A stretch of 64,000 bases of DNA from Emiliania huxleyi CCMP1516. Its lineage: Eukaryota. Made by a program: the position numbers and the translations under genes. Where the stretch lies: contig NW_005201287.1 in assembly GCF_000372725.1 (NCBI RefSeq), forward strand, positions 465,081 through 529,080, given 5' to 3'. Position 1 is the first letter of the stretch. Each line of letters opens with the position of its first letter. Positions 25,048 through 57,200 of the stretch are shown here, piece by piece. Under the pieces are notes generated by a model. It was not told where the DNA came from and did no database searches. It saw only the letters and a program-made list of their open reading frames with translations.

Positions 25048-25311
25048 TCATCACTGAAAAGTCACCCAGGGGAACCCGAAAGAAATATCGCGCTCGCCTT
25101 TCGGTTCCATCGAGCGGCACGTCACGGCGACTCGATTGCTCCGATGGCGTCTGTCGCCTCCGGGGCAGCTATTATGCCTGGTCTGTGCCTTCCGCCCCGT
25201 GTGAGCTGGTCAGAAAATGCTACAACTTGCCACAACAGCAACGATCAGTGCAAGAACTTCCAATCGCTGGAGATATCGGTAGCGTCGCCGACTGCGTCCT
25301 CGACTGCGTAC

Positions 25312-25383
25312 ATGATGAAGGCGAAGCGCGTGATGGAGATTGGCATGTTCACGGGTTGCGGCGCCCTCACCATCGCCGAGGTC
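25312..25383 (+). pseudogene. Isolated O-methyltransferase (CCoAOMT/Methyltransf_3-type) SAM-motif fragment within a chimeric ORF (25144-25716)
   Basis: MMKAKRVMEIGMFTGCGALTIAE, flanked by unrelated Pro-rich and Cys-rich sequence. Confidence 0.55.
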
Positions 25384-25884
25384 CCTTCGCCAGACTTTGG
25401 ATACACCACCACCACCTTCCCGCCATCATCGCCGCCGCCACCGCTGCCGCCACCGCCACCACTCCCGTCTCCGAGACCCCAATCAGCTCCCCCGTCTCTG
25501 CCTCCGAAGACAGCCATCATCACAGACGGGCAGTGCAAAGTCACAGCATCCGGCCTGTGCCTTGCGGCTCTGCACGGCCCCGAATTCGCTGATTGCCCGC
25601 CCCCATCGATCGGGTACTCGCGCAAAGAGCAACGGTATGTCGCCGTCCAGCCAAAGCGATGCGCGTGCGAGTTCCGCCTACTCGGTGGGGTGAGGTACTG
25701 CAGCCGCTCCGTCTGACGGTGACGCTGACGGTGACGCGGGGAGGACACGTTTTTGCGTGCGAGAGACGCTGCACGCGTGTCCAGTACGTGTAAGTGTCAA
25801 GTACGTGCAAGTGTTCAGTACGTGCAAGTGTCCAATATTGCACAGGCGAATTCCAGAGTTCCTACACATCTATACACGTATAAT

Positions 25885-28494
25885 CTTAGGGGACCCCTAG
25901 GCTTAAAAGGGTGGGCCCTGGGGCGCCTGCGGCTTAAACGGCTTAAAGCGGGCCATGGCCCATTTTAAGGCTGCCTGGGCCGCCGATTCCTTAAACGGTC
26001 TTAAACCCTTAAACGGCGCGGGAGAGCTCCCGAGGTCGATGGTCCGGGAGGCTCCCCCGGTAGACGCCGCGGAGGCCGGGAAGCTGGCTACAGTCAGCTA
26101 GCACGCGTGTCGCGTCCCCTATATGCGAGTATGGCTCCTGCCAGTGCACCAGACTTACAGATGTGTCTTCAGAGGCGGGTTTGTGCCCAATAACGGCAGT
26201 ATTGGAGAAAACGGCAGTAACCCAGCGACGCATGCCGGCGAGGCCGCCCCCTGTGGGTGGGCCGAGCGGCGTCGGCCATCGCCGAAGCTCGAGGGTGGCT
26301 CCCCAGTGTGCGAGGGACAGAACTCAGGCGAGACGATGGTAAGACAAAACCCCGACAAAGCGAGTATCCGCTCCGCGGCGCAACCCCTCTCGGGAGGCTC
26401 GGATGGCTCGTGGAGGCTCGGTATGGCTCGGTATGGCTCGCCTCGGTATGGCTCGGGCTCGGGGTGGGTGGGATAGCTCGGGATGGTTTGCGTTGAGGGG
26501 CTCCCCTTCCGCGGGGGGGGGGGCTCACAGATGGTTTCAATGCAGTAAAAGGCGCTATGGTCAGCTCTGCGCGCCAAACGTACAAAGGTCCAAGTAACGG
26601 ACTGACGAGAACAAGGTTACCTACGGTACATCGTCATCGCGCGGCAGGCATGCACGCGTGTACAGCCGCGTAGACCAAATCCCACGCGCGACGTAATCTA
26701 ACCCTCACGCCAGCTTAAGAATCGATCTCTCTAACCCTCCCTCACGCAAGCCCTGCTCGGAGCTCCTCGAGCTCCTCTTGCGCGCGCGCGAGATCAGCCG
26801 CCAAGCGACTGCGGGTGGCGTCATGCGCCGCGCACTCCTCTCTGAGCAGCGCAGCGAGCAGGGCGACTTCTCCATCCGGCTGGGCGCGGGCATTCTCGGG
26901 TCGCTCGGGCACCTGCTGGGCGTGATCGAGCATGGAGGCGCTCCGGTCGGGCGCGCTGCATTTGTGCGCTTCTTCCGAGTGCGTCGAAGCCTCGCCGCGT
27001 GCCTCGGTAAGTGTCGGATCCTCGCTCTCGAGCTCACTCACGTGCGCGAGTCGCTGCACCGCCTCGCCGAGCCGGCTCTGATCGGAACGGCCAGAAGACC
27101 GCGGTCCCTCCCGCCAGAGTATGGCAGGGAAGAGCGACGTGTGGTCGAGGGAGCACGAGCGGCCGTCGCCAGGAAGGTTGTACATGCGCTCCTCGGCAGA
27201 GCGCGTAAGCAGGTCCGTGAAGCCGCCCACCGCGGAGTCGAGGGACCGGGCAGGTGGATCGTGCAAGTCGTCGTCGAGCGAGCGGCAGCAGATATTCGTG
27301 GGTGTGGAACCGAGCGTACCCTCGGTCACGTAGAGCACGCGGCCGCCGGGGCAGCGCACCAGCTCCGCCGTCACGTGCTGCAGGAAGGGCACTTGGCGCT
27401 TGGTGTAGTTGACAATCTGCATGGTCGCACTCCCAGTGGACAGGAGCTCCTGGGTGAATCGCGACGCCAGCCGGCGATCGGACCCTGGGCCCTGCAGGAT
27501 CTTTGGCGGCGCGCCGATGCACTCGCGCCCCCATCCGCAGTGATTGAGCCACGCACTGTTGGCTGCAACGATCCCGAATGGCGGCTCGGAGTCAACCACA
27601 ATCGTGAGGCACGGCGAGCGTCCGACGCGGAGGTGCAGCGAATCGGGCGCGATCTTGCGCGTTGGCGAGTGCCAGATCGACCCGTGCGCGTCGGTGCTCG
27701 ACGCGGCCGCTTTCGCCGCGGCCCAGGCGTCGACTGCGGCTTGCATGATGAAGAACAGAGCCGAAGAACAGAGCCGATGAGAAGATGGTCGACAGAGCGC
27801 TCTGCGTGACGTGTTCCTTGTTACCTCGGGCGGTCCCCTACCAAACCAACCACACGTGTCCCTCGCTTGCGCGCGGGCGCGTCAACTGATTTTCATTGAC
27901 CGACGCCTGTCGCGACTCGCGAGCACCCTTAGACAGAGGGAGGGGACACCTGAGCGCGTGTTTGCGTCCTCCGAGGGCGGCGATTAATTAGGAAAGCGCA
28001 CTGCAAACAGCTTTACCCGAGTGGTCCAAGAATACAGCTACCAAACAGCTTTACGTACGGGACAACCAACAAGAAAAGAACGGCGTGAACATAACTGGTA
28101 CTGGTGTGAGACTGTAGGAATTCGATCGCGCCGTCCCTCCGTCGGCCGCGCTCCGCGCCGCCCGCCGCGTGCTCGTCGTGCCGCGCCTGCAGGTCGGTGA
28201 GCAGCGCCGTCGTGTGCTCGTGCGACTGCGTGAGCGTCGCCAGCTGGGCCGCCGCGTGCTCGTACGCGCGCGCCATGACGGACGATTTTCTTAAACGGTC
28301 TTAAAAGAGCTAAGAGGGACCCCCCGTGCCTGCAATCTCTTAAATGGCAATTTAAGCCCCCAAACCTCCTCATTTCTTAAAAGCTCTTAAAAAATCCAAG
28401 AGAGGGGTCGGGGGGCGGGAGAATCCAAAAAAGCCGTCCAAAAAGCCACAAAAAGCCAGAAATCCGGCCCTCAGAACCCTTGGGATCCCCTAAG
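25885..28494. mobile_element. 2.6-kb non-autonomous hAT-type element carrying a cargo gene
   Basis: TSD cgtataat at 25877-25884 and 28495-28502; TIRs cttaggggacccctagg and ccttgggatcccctaag (15/17); TTAA-rich subterminal repeats at both ends. Confidence 0.85.
26742..27746 (-). CDS. PAS (LOV-like) domain protein with C-terminal coiled coil, inside the hAT-type element
   Basis: PPFGIVAANSAWLNHCGW...KILQGPGSD...IVNYTKRQVPF; intronless 334-aa ORF. Confidence 0.75.
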   Translation of the reverse strand: MQAAVDAWAAAKAAASSTDAHGSIWHSPTRKIAPDSLHLRVGRSPCLTIVVDSEPPFGIVAANSAWLNHCGWGRECIGAPPKILQGPGSDRRLASRFTQELLSTGSATMQIVNYTKRQVPFLQHVTAELVRCPGGRVLYVTEGTLGSTPTNICCRSLDDDLHDPPARSLDSAVGGFTDLLTRSAEERMYNLPGDGRSCSLDHTSLFPAILWREGPRSSGRSDQSRLGEAVQRLAHVSELESEDPTLTEARGEASTHSEEAHKCSAPDRSASMLDHAQQVPERPENARAQPDGEVALLAALLREECAAHDATRSRLAADLARAQEELEELRAGLA

Positions 28495-28624
28495 CGTATA
28501 ATACGCACAAATAGCACGTCTCTATAGAGCCGTACACGGCTTTCCTTGTCAATCCGCGTTTTTGGTAAGGGCTAGTTCCATTTCACTGTGGCACAGCGCG
28601 CGTTACTGTTGTGGCCTAAAGTCT

Positions 28625-29141
28625 GGGCAGGTTGTGAGGATCACGATGCCGGCGTGAACACGACTAACTGACGGATCCGCTCCTGACAGTCGCACGCGCC
28701 GCGCTGCGGCGCGTGCGACTGTCTTTGTTTGAAGTTAAAAGTCGAATCAGAGCGCCGTCGGCGCTGATCCTCGTTTTCCTCCCACGGACCGCCCGTCCGG
28801 GACCGCTCCGGGACGCACGCCGGCGAAGCACCATCAAGCTGCTGTACGGCCCCGGAATCGCCTTCCCAGGCTTAGCTAGACTGAGAGATATTGTGGACAT
28901 GATTGGTCTCTAGAAATATACACTGACACTGAACCTCCAAGAGCTCGTCCCGGTCCGTCACGGCCATCCTCGGCCTCCGGAGGGCCCCCGGCCGCGGCGC
29001 GGCGCGGCGGAGTCACAAATCCGACGGCAGAGCACCGGGACGCGGTCGGGCGATCTGAGGCCCAACTAGGCGAATGCACATTGCCCATCCAGGGCTATCA
29101 CCTGGACTTATCAACAGGCGCCTGCGGCGCCGTACTCAGGA
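28625..29141 (+). repeat. Dispersed repeat family C (about 520 bp), copy 1
   Basis: Matches 41495-41699 plus 42547-42870 (+) and 56634-57200 (-). Confidence 0.92.
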
Positions 29142-29223
29142 GCTGCTGCTCCTGCTGCTCCAACCTGTTCACACTTTCGTACGAGTACATGTTACAAAAC
29201 CTTGATTTGACCATTTGCGCCAG

Positions 29224-30289: not shown

Positions 30290-33200
30290 CCCGAGATCGC
30301 GCGAGATCACGACTGGCTCAGCAGCGCCGCCGTCCGTTCGAGCAGAGCGCCCGGCAGCTTGACAGCGCGCGGCGTGCAAGCGCGGCGGCGGTCGAGGTAG
30401 CCCGAGAGCGCGCGGAGGAGCGTCGCCTGATGAGACACGCCCAGGACGTGTCACGGCCGTGTCCGTGCCGCGATGCAACGGGCGCGTCGCGCCGCAAGCG
30501 TGAGAGACATGCCCAAACCTCGGCTCCTCTCGGCTCCTCTCGGCTCCTCTCGGCTCCTCTCGGCTCCTCTCGGCCCCTTTCGGCTCCTCTCTGCGCATCT
30601 CTGCGCATCTCTGCGCATCTCTGCGCATCTCTGCGCATCTCGGCGCATCTCGGCTGCCTCTCGCCTGCGCCGGCTTGAGCGGGGCGCCGGGCGGGGCGCG
30701 GCTTGCCTCGCGCACCTCGGAGGCGAGCAAGTCCCACATCGACCTACTCCGGAAGGGGGAGGGGCTCAGCAAGGAGCACGCCCCTCCGACGCGAGCGAGC
30801 TGTCGCGTCGACCTCGTCAGCGAGTCGATGGCGACGGCGCCGGCGAGGCGAACCTCCGCCGCCAACTCTCCCCAGTCGGCGCGCACGACGGCGAGTGCAG
30901 CCGCGAGCTGCTCCCTGGGCTGCCAGCGCCAGCAGATCGAGGCCGAGTCCTCGACGGTGAGCGAGGCGTGCACCCACCCGCTCGGAAGCAGGAGCGTCTG
31001 CCCGCCCCGCGCCATCACAACCTGAGCGCCGGCGAGCCGACGGGGGAAGTCCGCCCCACCGCCTCCGCCGCCGCCCGCCTCGTGGCCGCTCTGCTGCAGG
31101 AGCCGCAGGTTGGACGGCGTCGGCGGGGCCACCACGAAGAGCTGCGCGCCCCACAAAAGGTGGTGGATCGCCGCGCTGCCCCAGGGAGAGAGGCGGTAGC
31201 GCGCCGCGGACGCGCCGCCCATCGAGAGGGTGAGGACGGGGAGGGGCGACGGCCACCAGTCGGGCGTGAGGCTGGAGGAGGCGAGCTGCGGCGGCATGTC
31301 GGCGAGGGGGATGCCGGAGAAGCCGCCGAGGGAGAGCGAGGAGGCGCCCCCGACGTAGTCCTCGCCGCTCACAGCGTGCTCGCAGTGCAGCAGCGCCTCC
31401 CGCTGCGCGGGCGGCGTGCCAAACTGCTGCAGCAGCCACGGCACGCCCACGACCTCGACGCCGCCGCCGGCGCGCAAGTCCGAGGCTGCAACCAGCGTGG
31501 TCCGCTTGAGCTGGCGCTTCGTCTCGCCGACGACGTCGCCGAAGCCACCCCAGGGCGGCGGCGACACGCCCAGCCCGCACCCCGCACCCGCCTCCGCGTC
31601 GCCCTTGACGAGGAGAGCTCCCTCCTCCGCGCCTTGCTCCGCCCGGCGCAGCGCGTCTCGCGGCTCGAGCGGACACGCGGAGAGCGAGAGTGACTCTGGA
31701 AGCGCGGGCAGCGCGCCGCCCGAGCGGAGCAGCACCAGCCGGCAGAGGGCCTCGGCAGGGAGGGAGTCGAGGCCGTCGGCACCAGCCTCGCGCACGCACG
31801 CCGCCACGTCCTCGGCGCGCACGAGCGACGGCACGGCGGCGAGCAGCCGCCGCCGCACCTCCCCCTCCTCCTCCGCCGTGGCGGCGGGGGGGGGCGCCGC
31901 CCTCGCCGCCTCCCACGCGCCTGTGGGGGCATGTCTCGGACGCGTCGTGGACGTGTCGTGGACGTGTGCGCCGACCCCCTCGTGCACGTACCAGGCGCCG
32001 CATTTGGGCCATCTCCCCGCTATCTCTCCGCCATCTCTCGGCCATCTCTCGGCCATCTCCCCGCCATCTCCCCGCCATCTCTCGGCCATCTCGCCGCCAT
32101 CTCCCCGCCATCTCTCGGCCATCTCTCGGCTATCTCCCCGCCATCTCTCGGCCATCTCCCCGCCATCTCCCCGCCATCTCTCGGCCATCTCTCGGCTATC
32201 TCCCCGCCATCTCTCGGCCATCTCTCGGCCATCTCTCGGCCATCTCTCGGCCATCTCTCGGCCATCTCTCGGCTATCTCTCGCCGTCGAGGGGTGCGGCT
32301 CCCTCCTCCTCGCCGTCATCCGTCCCGGGCAGGCAGACAGGCTCCGGCGAGCCGGACGAGGCACCGTCGGCAGCGGTGTCGTCGGCGGCGACGTCGGCGC
32401 GCGCTCGCTTGGCGGCATGTGGCCGGAGGCCTCCCTTGGCCTTGAGGACGCACGCATGGCGAAGCCGGCCCGGCCCTCCGAACTTTGGCTTGTCGAGGCA
32501 GTGGAGGCACTCGCCGCAGTCCTCGGGCGGGGGCGGCGCCGACGGGTCCCCGGCCGACCCGCCCTTCTTGCGCCGCTTCCGCCCCGCCCCGCTCCGGCGC
32601 GGCTTGGACGCCGCCGCCGCCGCCGCCGCCGCCGACGCCGCCGCCGCCGCCGCCGCCCCCGCCGACGCCGCCTCCGCCGTCGCCTGCTCGTCCTCGCCCT
32701 CCGCCTCCTCCGCCTCCTCCTCCGCCTCGCCCGCCCCGTTCCCCTCCTCGTCGTCGTCGCTCTCGTCGGCGGCGGCGTCGGCGCCACCGCCCTCCAGATA
32801 GCGCGCGTACACCAGCGCCGCCTCAACCTTGGTCGAGAAGGTTCCAAGCGCCTTCTTCTTGACCTCGACTCGGTACGTCGTCTGCCGCCGCTTGCCAACC
32901 ACCTGCGCCACCCGCGCGCAAGGGTCAGGCAAGGTTCAGGCAAGGGGCAGGGGAAGGGGCAGAGGGAAGGCTTCAGGGGCAGAGGGAGGGAGGAAAGGAA
33001 GAGGGAGGGGACAGCTCGCGACAGTTCAAAGCAAGCTCAGGGACGGTTCAGGGAAGGGGCGGCCCGACACCCGTGTGCCACACCTGCCGCACGCACGCGT
33101 ACCCAGTGTTCGACTTTGTCGAGCGGTGGAGACGGACGCCGTGGAGTGAGGCGAGGAGCGGGTCTCCGTCTGGACCGACCCGCGGGCCAGGGTCCCCCTC

Positions 33201-38698: not shown

Positions 38699-38798
38699 CC
38701 AGTTCACTGAACTCTCTGCAACCCCGTCGACTAAAGTAGGGCCTAGCGCGTAGGCTGTCTGTCTCCGCTCTCTCGTTGTAACTTTTATGCGCTGACCC

Positions 38799-39168
38799 TA
38801 GAGCTGTCAAACGTTAACTTTGGGCCTAACAGTTGCACTATTGTTGGCTGAAATCCTCAACGTTGTTCAAGTGTTCTCCCCAGCCCAAGCTGTTACTGTT
38901 TGTTACTGTTGTTACTGTTGTTCAGTGGTCAGCAAGCAGAAAATGCCAAAAAACCCGGGTAAAACCCGAAAATACCTGGGGTTTTCCAGGTATTTTCGGG
39001 TATTACCCGCACTGGACGCTGGAGATCGTCGTGGGTCACTGCCAGGCCTTCCTTATTGTTGTTCAGCTGGCCTAACGTTAGCTACTGTTGTTGGGGAGCC
39101 CCACTGTTGTTCTGTTGTTACTGTTAACACTAGCAACACTGTTCAGCTCTTAACGTTTGACTGCTCTA
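38799..39168. mobile_element. 370-bp hAT-type MITE
   Basis: TSD gctgaccc at 38791-38798 and 39169-39176; TIRs tagagctgtcaaacgttaa and ttaacgtttgactgctcta (18/19); ACTGTT subterminal repeats. Confidence 0.92.
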
Positions 39169-39407
39169 GCTGACCCGTGACCGCTGAAAATACTAGTACG
39201 CTACAGTACGGGGTGTGGCGTGTGGACCCTGAGTTGCATACAGTTACAGAGGCTGGGCGTGGGGGGTTGTGCGCCTTCCAGCCCCCCCCCCCCCCCCCCC
39301 CGCGCGTCGGGTAGTAAAAAAACGCGCATTCCGGCCAAAACTTTTGCCCTTGGAGCACTTGGAGTTGGAGTGCAGTCATTGCCGCGAGTTGTATTTTGCG
39401 GCCCCTC

Positions 39408-41494: not shown

Positions 41495-42870
41495 ATGGTT
41501 GCCCAGGTTGTGGAGGACACGAAGCTAGGATCCCGGCGTGAACACGACTAACTGACGGATCCGCTCCTGACAGTGGCACGCGCCGCCTCTGTGGCGCGTG
41601 CGACTGTCTTTGTTTGAAGTTAAAAGTCGAATCAGAGCGGTGTGTCGGCGTTGTCCTCCATTTTCCTCCCCTGGGCCCCGTCCGGGACCGCTCCGGGACT
41701 TGGGGCAAACGTAGATTTCCTGCCCAGCGTAAGGATATTTCTGTCATTTATTTCGTCTTTATTTCGTGCCCCACCACGGCAAATTTGCGAGAAATTTCTT
41801 CGCCCTCAAGTTTCGCCCCTTTCCGTTTCGCCCATGTTGGACACCCATGTTGGACCAGGCACCGTGCGGGCCTGCCGTGCCTTGCTTGAGCCGGCAGGCC
41901 CGCGCGGCAGTGATGGTGCGCCTCCGCGGAGAGGCTGACGCTGGTCATCGGTCAGCGGTCAGCGGTCATCGGTCACCGGTCAAGCAGGTCATCGGGCGTC
42001 AGTGTCATTCAGGCGTCAGTGTCATTCGCGTCAACCTTGCCACCAAAACCCACGCCAATCTCAACCTTCGAAAGCAATGAGCGACGACGACATGGACACG
42101 GAGTACCTCGCCACCCTGCAAGGTGCCGCTGCCGGCGATTCCGCACCGCAGGAGGAGACAACCATCCAGTCTGCGCCTGCCTCGCCAGTGCGAACCGAGG
42201 AAGCGCTGGAAGGCATCAAAGTCAACGACAAGATCCAGCACAAGGTGCTCAAGTTCCAAGGGCGCGTCGTGCAGCTCGGCTTCGCGGCGGAGCGTGTGTT
42301 CTCCATGCTCAAGTCAATGTTCGGCGACCAACAAATGGAGACCTTGGCAGATATCATCCAGACGGCCTTAATGCTCCGCATCAACGAGCGCCGCGTGGGC
42401 TGAGTGAGCACAGTATGATTGGGAACAGTACTCGTATATGAATAGTAGGATCTTGTCACGGGTATGGTAAATTTCCGGAAATTTCTCCTTCCGAACAAGC
42501 CTGTCATATTTCTCAAAATATTTCGGGAAATCTACGTCTGCCCCAATCCGGGACGCACGCCGGCGAAGCACCATCAAGCTGCTGTACGGCCCCGGCATCG
42601 CCTCCCCTGGCTTAGCCAGAGTGAGAGATATTATGCACACGGTCTGTCTCTAATACTCATCGACACTCCACCTCCCAGAGCTCGTCCCGGTCCGCCACGG
42701 CCATCCTTGGCCTCCGGAGGGCCCCCGGCCGCGGCGCGGTGCGGCGGCGTCACAAATCCGACCACAGAGCACCGGGACGTGGTCGGGCGATCTGAGGTCC
42801 AACTAGGCGTATGCATTGCCTATCCAGGGCTATCACCTGGACCCATCAACAGGCGCCTGCGGCGCCGTGG
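41495..42870 (+). repeat. Repeat family C, copy 2, split by a hAT-type insertion
   Basis: 41495-41699 and 42547-42870 rejoin to match 28625-29135. Confidence 0.9.
41700..42546 (+). mobile_element. 847-bp internally deleted hAT element
   Basis: TSD tccgggac at 41692-41699 and 42547-42554; 21-bp TIR ttggggca(a/g)acgtagatttcc; ORF 42077-42403 ends AAERVFSMLKSMFGDQQ (hAT C-terminal dimerisation motif). Confidence 0.92.
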
Positions 42871-55030: not shown

Positions 55031-55552
55031 GCCGGTGAGCAGGCTCGACTGGCCCGCGCGCCCCTCCCCCAAGCCCTCGCCCAGCCTGCCCGCCAGCCTG
55101 GCTGCGCGGCGGGCCTTCGCGCGGGACAGGCAGGCGGCGCGCGCCTGTCGGAAGGGGGTCGTGGCCCGGGGGGGGGGGGGTGATGGGGGGGGCGGAGGGA
55201 GAGGGCGGGTGGCTAGGGCCAGGGTCTGGGGGTTTGCTCCTCCCTCTCCCTTTGCCCCTCCATCGCCGCCGGAAGCTCCCGCGCCGACAGCGCCGACACC
55301 TTCGCCTTGATTGGTGTCCCCGTATTCGTCAATGATTAGTGTCGCGGGAGTACCAAAGGCCGGTGCCTNNNNNNNNNNNNNNNNNNNNNNNNNNNNNNNN
55401 NNNNNNNNNNNNNNNNNNNNNNNNNNNNNNNNNNNNNNNNNNNNNNNNNNNNNNNNNNNNNNNNNNNNNNNNNNNNNNNNNNNNNNNNNNNNNNNNNNNN
55501 NNNNNNNNNNNNNNNNNNNNNNNNNNNNNNNNNNNNNNNNNNNNNNNNNNNN

Positions 55553-56633: not shown

Positions 56634-57200
56634 ATATGAAAGTGTGAACAAGTGGGAGCAGCAGCTTCTGACCACGGCGCCGCAGGCGCCTGTTGATAGG
56701 TCCAGGTGGTAGCCCTGGATAGGCAATGCATACGCCTAGTTGGACCTCAGATCGCCCGACCGCGTCCCGGTGCTCTGCCGTCGGATTTATTTAGAGTGAC
56801 GCCGCCGCACCGCGCCGCCCGCGGCCGGGGGCCCTCCGGAGGCCGAGGATGGCCGTGACGGACCGGGACGAGCTCTGGGAGGTTCAGTGTCAGTGTATAC
56901 ATTGTAGAGACTGACCATGTGCACAATATCTCTCAGTCTAGCTAAGCCTGGGGAGGCGATTCCGGGGCCGTACAGCAGCTTGATGGTGCTTCGCCGGCGT
57001 GCGTCCCGGAGCGGTCCCGGTTGGGCAATCCGGGGGAGAAAACTCAGGACAACGCCGACGCCGCTCTGATTCGACTTTTTACTTCAAACAAAGACGGCGG
57101 CACGCGCCGCAGCGCGCGGTGCGTGCCGCCGTCAGGAGCGGATCCGTCAGTTAGTTGTATTCACGCCGGGATCGTGTCCTGAGTAACTTGCCCAACCATT
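56634..57200 (-). repeat. Repeat family C, copy 3
   Basis: Reverse complement of 28625-29141. Confidence 0.92.

Follow-up and report, generated by a model that had tools for sequence, protein, structure and literature searches.

How does a whole, apparently transcribed gene come to lie inside a miniature transposon of an alga? This question is raised by an element at positions 25877..28502 of a 64,000-nucleotide stretch of Emiliania huxleyi CCMP1516 (contig NW_005201287.1, positions 465,081 to 529,080; hereafter the window), in which terminal inverted repeats (TIRs) and a target-site duplication (TSD) enclose an open reading frame (ORF) for a PAS-domain protein. An earlier note on this DNA had described a recently mobile Pack-type hAT element carrying a complete PAS/LOV-like sensory gene. 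The present analysis leads, with reasonable though not high confidence, to a different account. The element is a copy of an abundant miniature inverted-repeat transposable element (MITE) of ~490 bp that holds a single-copy insert of 2.04 kb with an intact, apparently transcribed PAS gene; mobilization of the MITE by a P-type transposase is likely, and repair guided by microhomology probably introduced the insert. The evidence comprises the window itself, metagenome contigs, and contigs of public sequencing runs, seven of which (X2, X3, X4, X5, X7, X8, and X9) were compared out of 16.

Element Ends and the MITE Family

An exact 8-bp TSD, CGTATAAT, stands at 25877..25884 and again at 28495..28502, directly outside a 17-bp TIR pair in which 15/17 positions match. 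The left TIR (25885..25901, + strand; CTTAGGGGACCCCTAGG) is identical to the common TIR of the family described below, and the right TIR (28478..28494, - strand) shows two changes relative to it. By a simple base-composition estimate, ~0.004 such TSD and TIR structures are expected per window by chance. The motifs CTTAAA/TTTAAG occur seven times in 25885-26030 (146 bp), six times in 28280-28494 (215 bp), and nowhere in the cargo, and CTTAAACGGTCTTAAA is found at both element ends. No tblastn match to the window was obtained with five transposases linked to the family. The perfect TSD, the 17-bp TIRs, the subterminal motifs, and the lack of a transposase thus stand as previously described, as does the broader view of a TIR element that is non-autonomous, has an 8-bp TSD, and holds host-like coding DNA, including one whole and apparently transcribed ORF.

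Both arms of the element belong to the abundant MITE family. A scan of metagenome contigs with the TIR pattern yielded 84 loci, of which 76 were assigned to the family and eight were dropped as unrelated. Nine contigs include both MITE ends (483-537 bp), none of them containing the cargo. The family comprises two subfamilies, A and B, which have the first 131 and the last 55 bp in common. By alignment to the copies, the left arm (25885..26246), with its CTTAAA/TTTAAG motifs, and the right arm (28283..28494) are of subfamily A, being 93-97% identical to six subfamily-A copies that are 94-98% identical among themselves. Summed contig depth over the arms exceeds that of the flank hundreds-fold (18,855 versus 56 in X2; 51,101 versus 85 in X4), although contig depth, as the tool warns, is not a copy number, and the arm depth is read only as "many". 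Compared with the nine full copies, the window copy alone has a 67-bp insert, a 7-bp duplication in the right arm, and the two TIR changes. The 67-bp insert, also in the right arm (28393..28459), is absent from MITE copies, contigs joining 28392 to 28460/1, and ~50 bp of it match another repeat (L021 1736-1788, 96%; L028 1186-1231, 93%). A composite of two MITEs was considered and rejected, since together the two arms make up one MITE exactly, each supplying the half that the other lacks.

TSDs also occur elsewhere in the family, with 8 bp at L005 and 7 bp at L008/L070, which represent one site. Among 33 distinct left and 43 right flanks, six exact 8-mer pairs, one 7-mer pair, and no 9-mer pair were found, against a control mean of 0.075. 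The family thus displays a 7- or 8-bp TSD, as P-superfamily elements do.

Among the eight loci dropped from the family, L029, L031, L042, L043, L053, L066, and L082 share one flank in AT-rich DNA, and L065 matches the pattern only. The former seven represent one AT-rich, gene-dense locus type (39-42% GC in the three checked), whose match to the first 27 bases of the left end was treated as chance. At L051 and L011, family ends are broken off at TTAA. In L051, the sequence after the break has the inverted repeat GGTGGCAGTCCGGG at its borders, flanked by TTAA at either end, and represents a nested element that targets TTAA; judging from such sites, the subterminal TTAA motifs seem to serve as landing sites for such insertions. 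Viral contigs contained neither a TIR match nor a transposase relative.

Cargo Insert and Its Joints

The cargo (26247..28282) is a ~2.04-kb, single-copy segment of 65% GC without a TIR or transposase of its own. Depth is flat across it and contigs are unbroken at its borders, one X2 contig covering 26206-28324 and one X3 contig 26550-28341. Contigs of public runs also join 26243/4 directly to 28283, which is the cargo-free form of the MITE. At the X2 joint (26244 to 28283), 2038 letters are skipped and two letters fit both sides. The MITE reads GAGGC-CG-ATTTT at this joint; in the window copy, CG flanks 26247-28282 on both sides, with the left copy (26245..26246) inside GGCCG and the right copy (28283..28284) inside GGACG, so that no MITE base was lost. 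A cargo match was found at 0/84 metagenome loci, and no donor copy was found elsewhere in the 64-kb window. The terminal motifs TG..CA and CTRR mark the ends of other transposable element (TE) superfamilies; neither these nor a TIR were seen at the cargo borders, and a nested TE was accordingly rejected.

In X4, the flank has a depth of 128 and splits at 25807-25911 into two alleles. Allele 1 (47.6) is identical to the window and enters the TIR, and allele 2 (76.4) has two differences and lacks the left junction. Since the cargo depth in this run (50 and 39) is close to that of one flank allele (47.6), the data suggest that the cargo is present on one allele in X4. An empty-site joint (25884 to 28503) was not seen among the nine joints of one contig set, nor among 15 of 54 listed in another. 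X3, X4, and X5 agree in the left junction, beyond which their contigs reach 27-30 letters into the element, slightly short of the 31 letters required for a bridge.

A few non-coding sites of the cargo vary among X2, X3, and X4, and the loaded allele therefore seems common to several strains. At least five variant sites (26455, 26512, 27799, 27960, and 28113), two of them in simple repeats, lie in the part of the cargo outside the ORF (1,030 bp), and none is listed in the ORF across the seven runs, which gives a weak hint of constraint on the gene. The earlier note had proposed looking for the TIR pair elsewhere and for cargo variation. The first search led to the 76 family loci out of 84 matches, all cargo-free; the second revealed the variants of X2, X3, and X4 and no second loaded copy. 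Its claim of recent mobility with the cargo is not upheld, given a cargo that is single-copy in DNA-like runs and missing from all metagenome loci, a right TIR with two changes, and no listed empty-site joint.

PAS Gene and Its Apparent Transcription

The PAS ORF (26742..27746, - strand) encodes 334 aa without interruption, as previously reported. Its GC content at third codon positions (GC3) is 0.80. One contig each in X5 (26610-27733) and X7 (26594..27737), RNA-like runs whose type is guessed or unrecorded, extends over the ORF, with the strand (-) inferred from the ORF itself and nothing over 27744-28211; both runs skip most of 30423-30807 as if spliced. X8 and X9, marine RNA runs of different studies, contain pieces of the ORF with no differences and nothing over 27814-28285. 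Across these four RNA or RNA-like runs, cover is limited to the ORF and untranslated regions, with no listed sequence change. The ORF thus appears to be transcribed, which bears on the expression check suggested earlier; RNA cover is lacking outside it, a weak hint as well. An opposite-strand ORF (26823-27809) has no Pfam match and was treated as a shadow.

Upstream of the gene, a spacer (27747..28012, - strand) has a pyrimidine-rich leader and is presumed to include the promoter; it lies within the span without RNA cover in X5 and X7 (27744-28211), and in X8 and X9 it is uncovered from 27814 onward. It is followed by a second ORF (28013-28276, - strand) of 87 aa, with GC3 0.98 over the first 50 codons, whose open frame extends to the junction at 28282. 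What had been described as a second coiled-coil fragment is indeed present, and in refined form it looks, from its sequence, like the 5'-truncated tail of a coiled-coil-like gene (28013..28282, - strand) with no Pfam match and no RNA contig cover.

PAS Protein and Its Relatives

AlphaFold and homologues divide the 334-aa protein into a PAS domain with an N-terminal cap (residues 1-145), a disordered linker (146-290), and a C-terminal helix or coil (292-333); the predicted local distance difference test (pLDDT) score is mostly >90 over residues 1-140, the middle is disordered, and residues 292-333 form a helix. The best LOV chains in Foldseek reach E ~1e-8, with a root-mean-square deviation of 1.7-3 Å over ~105-116 columns, and the best PDB sequence matches are likewise LOV domains (E 4e-5); the Pfam PAS match is below cutoff (E 0.013). 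LOV domains of phototropin, aureochrome, and EL222 thus resemble the protein in PAS fold, both by structure and by sequence. However, where LOV photoreceptors have the motif GxNCRFLQG, the window protein has GAPPKILQG, with proline in place of the adduct-forming cysteine, and it lacks a kinase, basic leucine zipper (bZIP), or helix-turn-helix (HTH) output. Proline occupies this place in 55/70 aligned relatives. The "PAS/LOV-like" description is therefore right as to the PAS fold, the domain not being a canonical LOV.

A full HMMER scan with the protein recovered 442 relatives, the best single-domain match having 42% identity over residues 7-147; a word-index homologue search gave no match. Similarity to proteins of marine data sets that combine PAS with transmembrane segments (P0002, P0008, P0021, and others) reaches that 42%, and W66, C70, N113, and an upstream "W25" cap are held in common. 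In contrast to these proteins, the window protein has no membrane-like hydrophobic stretch, a feature present in 47/53 aligned relatives of at least 190 aa. It keeps 30/40 consensus positions (14th from the bottom of 71; median 80%), and residues 146-334 have no match among 160 compared proteins. We infer a soluble PAS module with a dimerizing coil and without an output domain of its own. A "complete sensory gene" had been claimed; the ORF is whole, but the protein has no LOV cysteine, no output domain, and a C-terminus unlike that of its relatives. A frameshifted membrane tail was sought in the other frames and none was found.

The relatives include a large unnamed single-PAS group (P0002, P0008, P0016, P0021, P0022, P0025, and others) with invariant W, C, and N. 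Its members have no LOV cysteine and mostly membrane-like C-termini, and the seven that were looked up are annotated as "hypothetical protein".

Candidate Partner Transposase

A candidate partner transposase is linked to the family by locus L024, a subfamily-B copy with ~620 extra bases between subfamily-B arms (99-100%). The insert contains a 256-aa frame that ends in a SAP domain and extends from the right arm up to a stop codon directly against the left arm, an arrangement typical of deletion derivatives. Judged by this orientation, the left arm of the window copy would correspond to the 3' end of the parent. Five proteins, one of them named from Chrysochromulina tobinii, match the frame at their C-termini with 53-60% identity. 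Five full-length relatives (1,349-1,437 aa) are arranged as a C2H2-like finger (C-x1-3-C...H-x3-5-H in 5/5), a coil, the motifs FDAxKV, xDN, D(2)H, and SDQxE, and then a chromodomain and a SAP domain, each of the last two occurring in 8/10 of the transposases compared. The D/D/E residues are conserved in 6/6, 10/10, and 9/10 of the rows reaching the site, and D(2)H in 10/10; in P0153 they correspond to D526, D633, E865, and D690-x2-H693, with catalytic roles assigned by motif position.

hAT transposases carry a C(2)H motif. In the five full-length proteins, CxxH is absent between D2 and E (5/5), and no hAT domain is found among the 14 Pfam families matched at E up to 10; the relatives also show no match to a THAP domain. 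Atlas neighbors of the transposase core are P-transposase families (PF21787/21788/21789; 0.94, 200-202 of 256 features), the first match (0.96) being an unnamed fungal cluster. The split RNase H core with a GTP-binding insertion domain that marks the P superfamily is hinted at by these neighbors, by Pfam TNP-like_RNaseH_N matches under the cutoff in 4/10 members, and by Foldseek, whose two best matches are the Drosophila P transposase. A wide VIA search returned generic helical matches only (best Z 7.0) and was uninformative. Considering the P-type core with D(2)H and the absence of both a hAT domain and CxxH, the partner transposase is probably of the P superfamily and not of hAT, the individual lines being modest but agreeing. 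By its sequence features, the putative P-type family is a variant, without THAP and with chromodomain and SAP, rather than a canonical P element.

The earlier assignment to hAT is accordingly unsupported, as 8-bp TSDs occur in P elements too and the only transposase linked to the family is P-type. The search it had suggested for an autonomous partner with the same TIR succeeded in part, with a transposase 3' end found in L024 and no full copy seen.

A further subfamily-B left arm with the last transposase codons occurs in L055 (51-1046, + strand), where it adjoins part of a helicase of DEAD/RecQ-like type (Pfam DEAD, E 3.7e-6). This fragment is a possible second cargo, on a contig without a right end.

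Proposed Origin of the Loaded Copy

In the mechanism proposed here, a P-type transposase (THAP-less, with chromodomain and SAP) would bind the CTTAGGGG ends and CTTAAA motifs, generate 7-8-bp TSDs, and in this way have multiplied the MITE. One copy would then have suffered an internal break, filled from a chromosomal template at the CG microhomology, and with the template would have come a gene's tail, a promoter, and the whole PAS gene; a later second repair may have added 67 bp of another repeat. The loaded element may thus have been filled in place rather than moved as a unit. The template locus would have been lost from the sampled strains, or capture would have taken place in another lineage, and the PAS protein would act as a soluble, non-photochemical module that dimerizes through its coil and lacks an output domain of its own. 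As the arms differ by only 3-7% from their sisters, a surviving parent should be visible at 88% identity; it was therefore probably lost, or else the capture belongs to another lineage.

Several observations weigh against this account. No second cargo-like sequence, either copy or donor, was found at >=88% in X2 and X4 or at >=92% in X3, in contigs that show presence and not absence, and the nearby parent expected under the gap-fill model (PMC8277862) was not found. The CG microhomology is only 2 bp and can be chance. The type of X2, X3, X5, and X7 is guessed or unrecorded, and contig depth, as noted above, is not a copy number. Six of the nine full MITE contigs have no TSD; these are suggested to be assembly chimeras, as supported for one, L075, whose left flank pairs with the right flank of L064. 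The link to the P superfamily comes from one subfamily-B contig, L024, with 15 nt of its stop region found again in L055, and the window copy belongs to subfamily A; among the metagenome loci, this deletion derivative is all that was seen, with no full autonomous copy bearing these TIRs. The Pfam and Foldseek matches to P transposases are below threshold, with TNP-like_RNaseH_N (PF21787) in 4/10 members at a best E of 0.0027 and the Drosophila P transposase on Foldseek ranks 1-2 at E 0.048 and 0.2 from a poor model (mean pLDDT 50.8), and PDB sequence searches with the transposases matched only chromo, SAP, or coil regions and no P transposase.

An unlikely but serious competitor is that the 2.6-kb element moved to this site whole, with its load, and serves or served to transport an accessory PAS gene without a fixed chromosomal home. 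Such a jump would explain the perfect TSD and both TIRs, although an empty MITE could equally have made the TSD, and it suits the apparent one-allele state in X4, where the other flank allele lacks the left junction. It would also account for the failure to find a donor at >=88%, and the three distinguishable cargo variants (X2, X3, and X4) and the transcripts in two marine studies are in keeping with it. However, depth indicates one copy per genome, none of the 84 loci has the cargo, the right TIR carries its two changes, and X3, X4, and X5 have one and the same left junction, at least over the 27-30 letters covered. Less probable still is that a larger P-type parent carried the cargo as native passenger DNA and gave rise by deletion to both this copy and the MITE. 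No host donor would then be missing, microhomology suits deletion as well as insertion, and both cargo ORFs run right to left like the L024 transposase; but the cargo holds no transposase remnant, the cut gene tail begins exactly at the junction shared with the MITE, and the TIR changes and the 67-bp and 7-bp inserts, absent from the nine full copies, make this copy look derived.

We give very little credence to the earlier proposal of a Pack-hAT moved by a hAT transposase. The element does show both hAT characteristics, an 8-bp TSD and short TIRs with subterminal repeats; hAT 8-nt TSDs and Pack-hATs are described in plants (PMC8903248), and the L024 insert might itself be captured DNA. Against this stand the linked transposase, with D(2)H, no CxxH in 5/5, and no Pfam match to hAT up to E 10, the L024 stop codon abutting the left arm in the manner of a deletion derivative, and the family site with a 7-bp TSD, a length reported for 1360 and Galileo of the P superfamily (PMC3698922). 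Microhomology-guided filling of a MITE spread by a P-type transposase remains the preferred explanation.

Comparison with Known Systems and Significance

P elements too make 8-bp TSDs (PMC7776569), and the Drosophila P element superfamily (1360, Galileo, THAP9) and the MITE BuT5 resemble the window family in their 7-8-bp TSDs and internally deleted non-autonomous copies (PMC7776569, PMC3698922). The DDE triad with D(2)H and a leucine-zipper-like coil ahead of the catalytic core are further points of likeness (PMC7776569, PMC3698922). In contrast to that superfamily, the window family has 17-bp TIRs starting CTTAGGGG, a linked transposase of 1,350-1,440 aa as against 751, a C2H2-like N-terminal finger without a THAP match, a C-terminal chromodomain and SAP, and a haptophyte host. 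The haptophyte setting agrees with the C. tobinii relative of the transposase, with one Atlas cluster, and with the marine runs, and 65% GC is in line with Emiliania or Gephyrocapsa.

Coding DNA between TIRs with a TSD, a cargo-free form, and joint microhomology, which characterize Pack-TIRs and Pack-TYPE elements, are all found here. As in animal Pack-TIRs (PMC8277862) and plant Pack-TYPE elements (PMC8903248), TIRs and a TSD surround non-TE coding DNA, the joints show short microhomology, hardly any TE sequence has been lost, and the copy is single and apparently transcribed. Most single-copy Pack-TIRs are explained by gap filling, with a median microhomology of 2 bp, and gap filling was shown for artificially activated P elements in Drosophila (PMC8277862). 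Unlike those elements, the window copy has no parental copy found, combines P-type ends with an algal host, and contains a whole ORF with its upstream region and not fragments only. Since no donor copy was seen, the label "Pack-like" is used: the element is one Pack-TIR-like copy from a chromodomain-bearing family of probable P type without THAP, and the gene it holds is an orphan. P-element capture in Drosophila is reported only after artificial activation in the accessible text of PMC8277862, natural P-type cases may stand in the supplementary list of that paper, and the accessible part of the plant Pack-TYPE paper (PMC8903248) mentions neither P elements nor algae. The open literature yielded neither a P transposase with a chromodomain nor a case of PAS capture for haptophytes (Repbase, Dfam, subscription journals, and supplements being outside the search).

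In plants and animals, it is well established that TIR transposons capture genes, usually in pieces and with the parent gene still in place. Here, a whole, apparently transcribed gene lies in a MITE with P-type ends in a haptophyte, and no parent was found. If the one-allele state holds, this would be a concrete case, testable by polymerase chain reaction, of accessory-gene origin in algal pan-genomes. The transposase layout (C2H2-like finger, P core, chromodomain, and SAP) is absent from the searched literature and is a candidate for chromatin-guided targeting. A more far-reaching and rather doubtful scenario is that a chromodomain/SAP, THAP-less P clade in haptophytes reads host chromatin marks to select or shun targets and has MITEs that act as gene shuttles, with this copy the sole home of a relocated or imported transcribed PAS gene that segregates as a presence/absence allele in wild plankton. 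The finding is smaller than the earlier claim because no second loaded copy or empty-site joint was found that would attest to mobility of the loaded element.

Neighboring Sequence

To the left of the element, RNA-like contigs (X5, X7) cover 25117-25914, up to or into the left TIR, and this neighbor has a weak O-methyltransferase match (E 0.0032). An assembly gap of 184 N lies at 55369-55552. Three repeat copies, 85-90% alike, occupy 28624-29181, 41529-42868, and 56635-57194, the first beginning just right of the PAS element.

Two other elements in the window have 8-bp TSDs. A 370-bp MITE at 38791-39176 (TSD GCTGACCC, TIR TAGAGC(T/A)GTCAAACGTT) has a hAT-like start. The element at 41692-42554 (TSD TCCGGGAC, 17-bp TIR TTGGGGCA(A/G)ACGTAGAT) includes a short ORF with "FAAERVFS", which we take to resemble a hAT C-terminus, Pfam giving no confirmation. 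A paralogous repeat with a single TCCGGGAC near 28800-28815 represents the empty site for this element.

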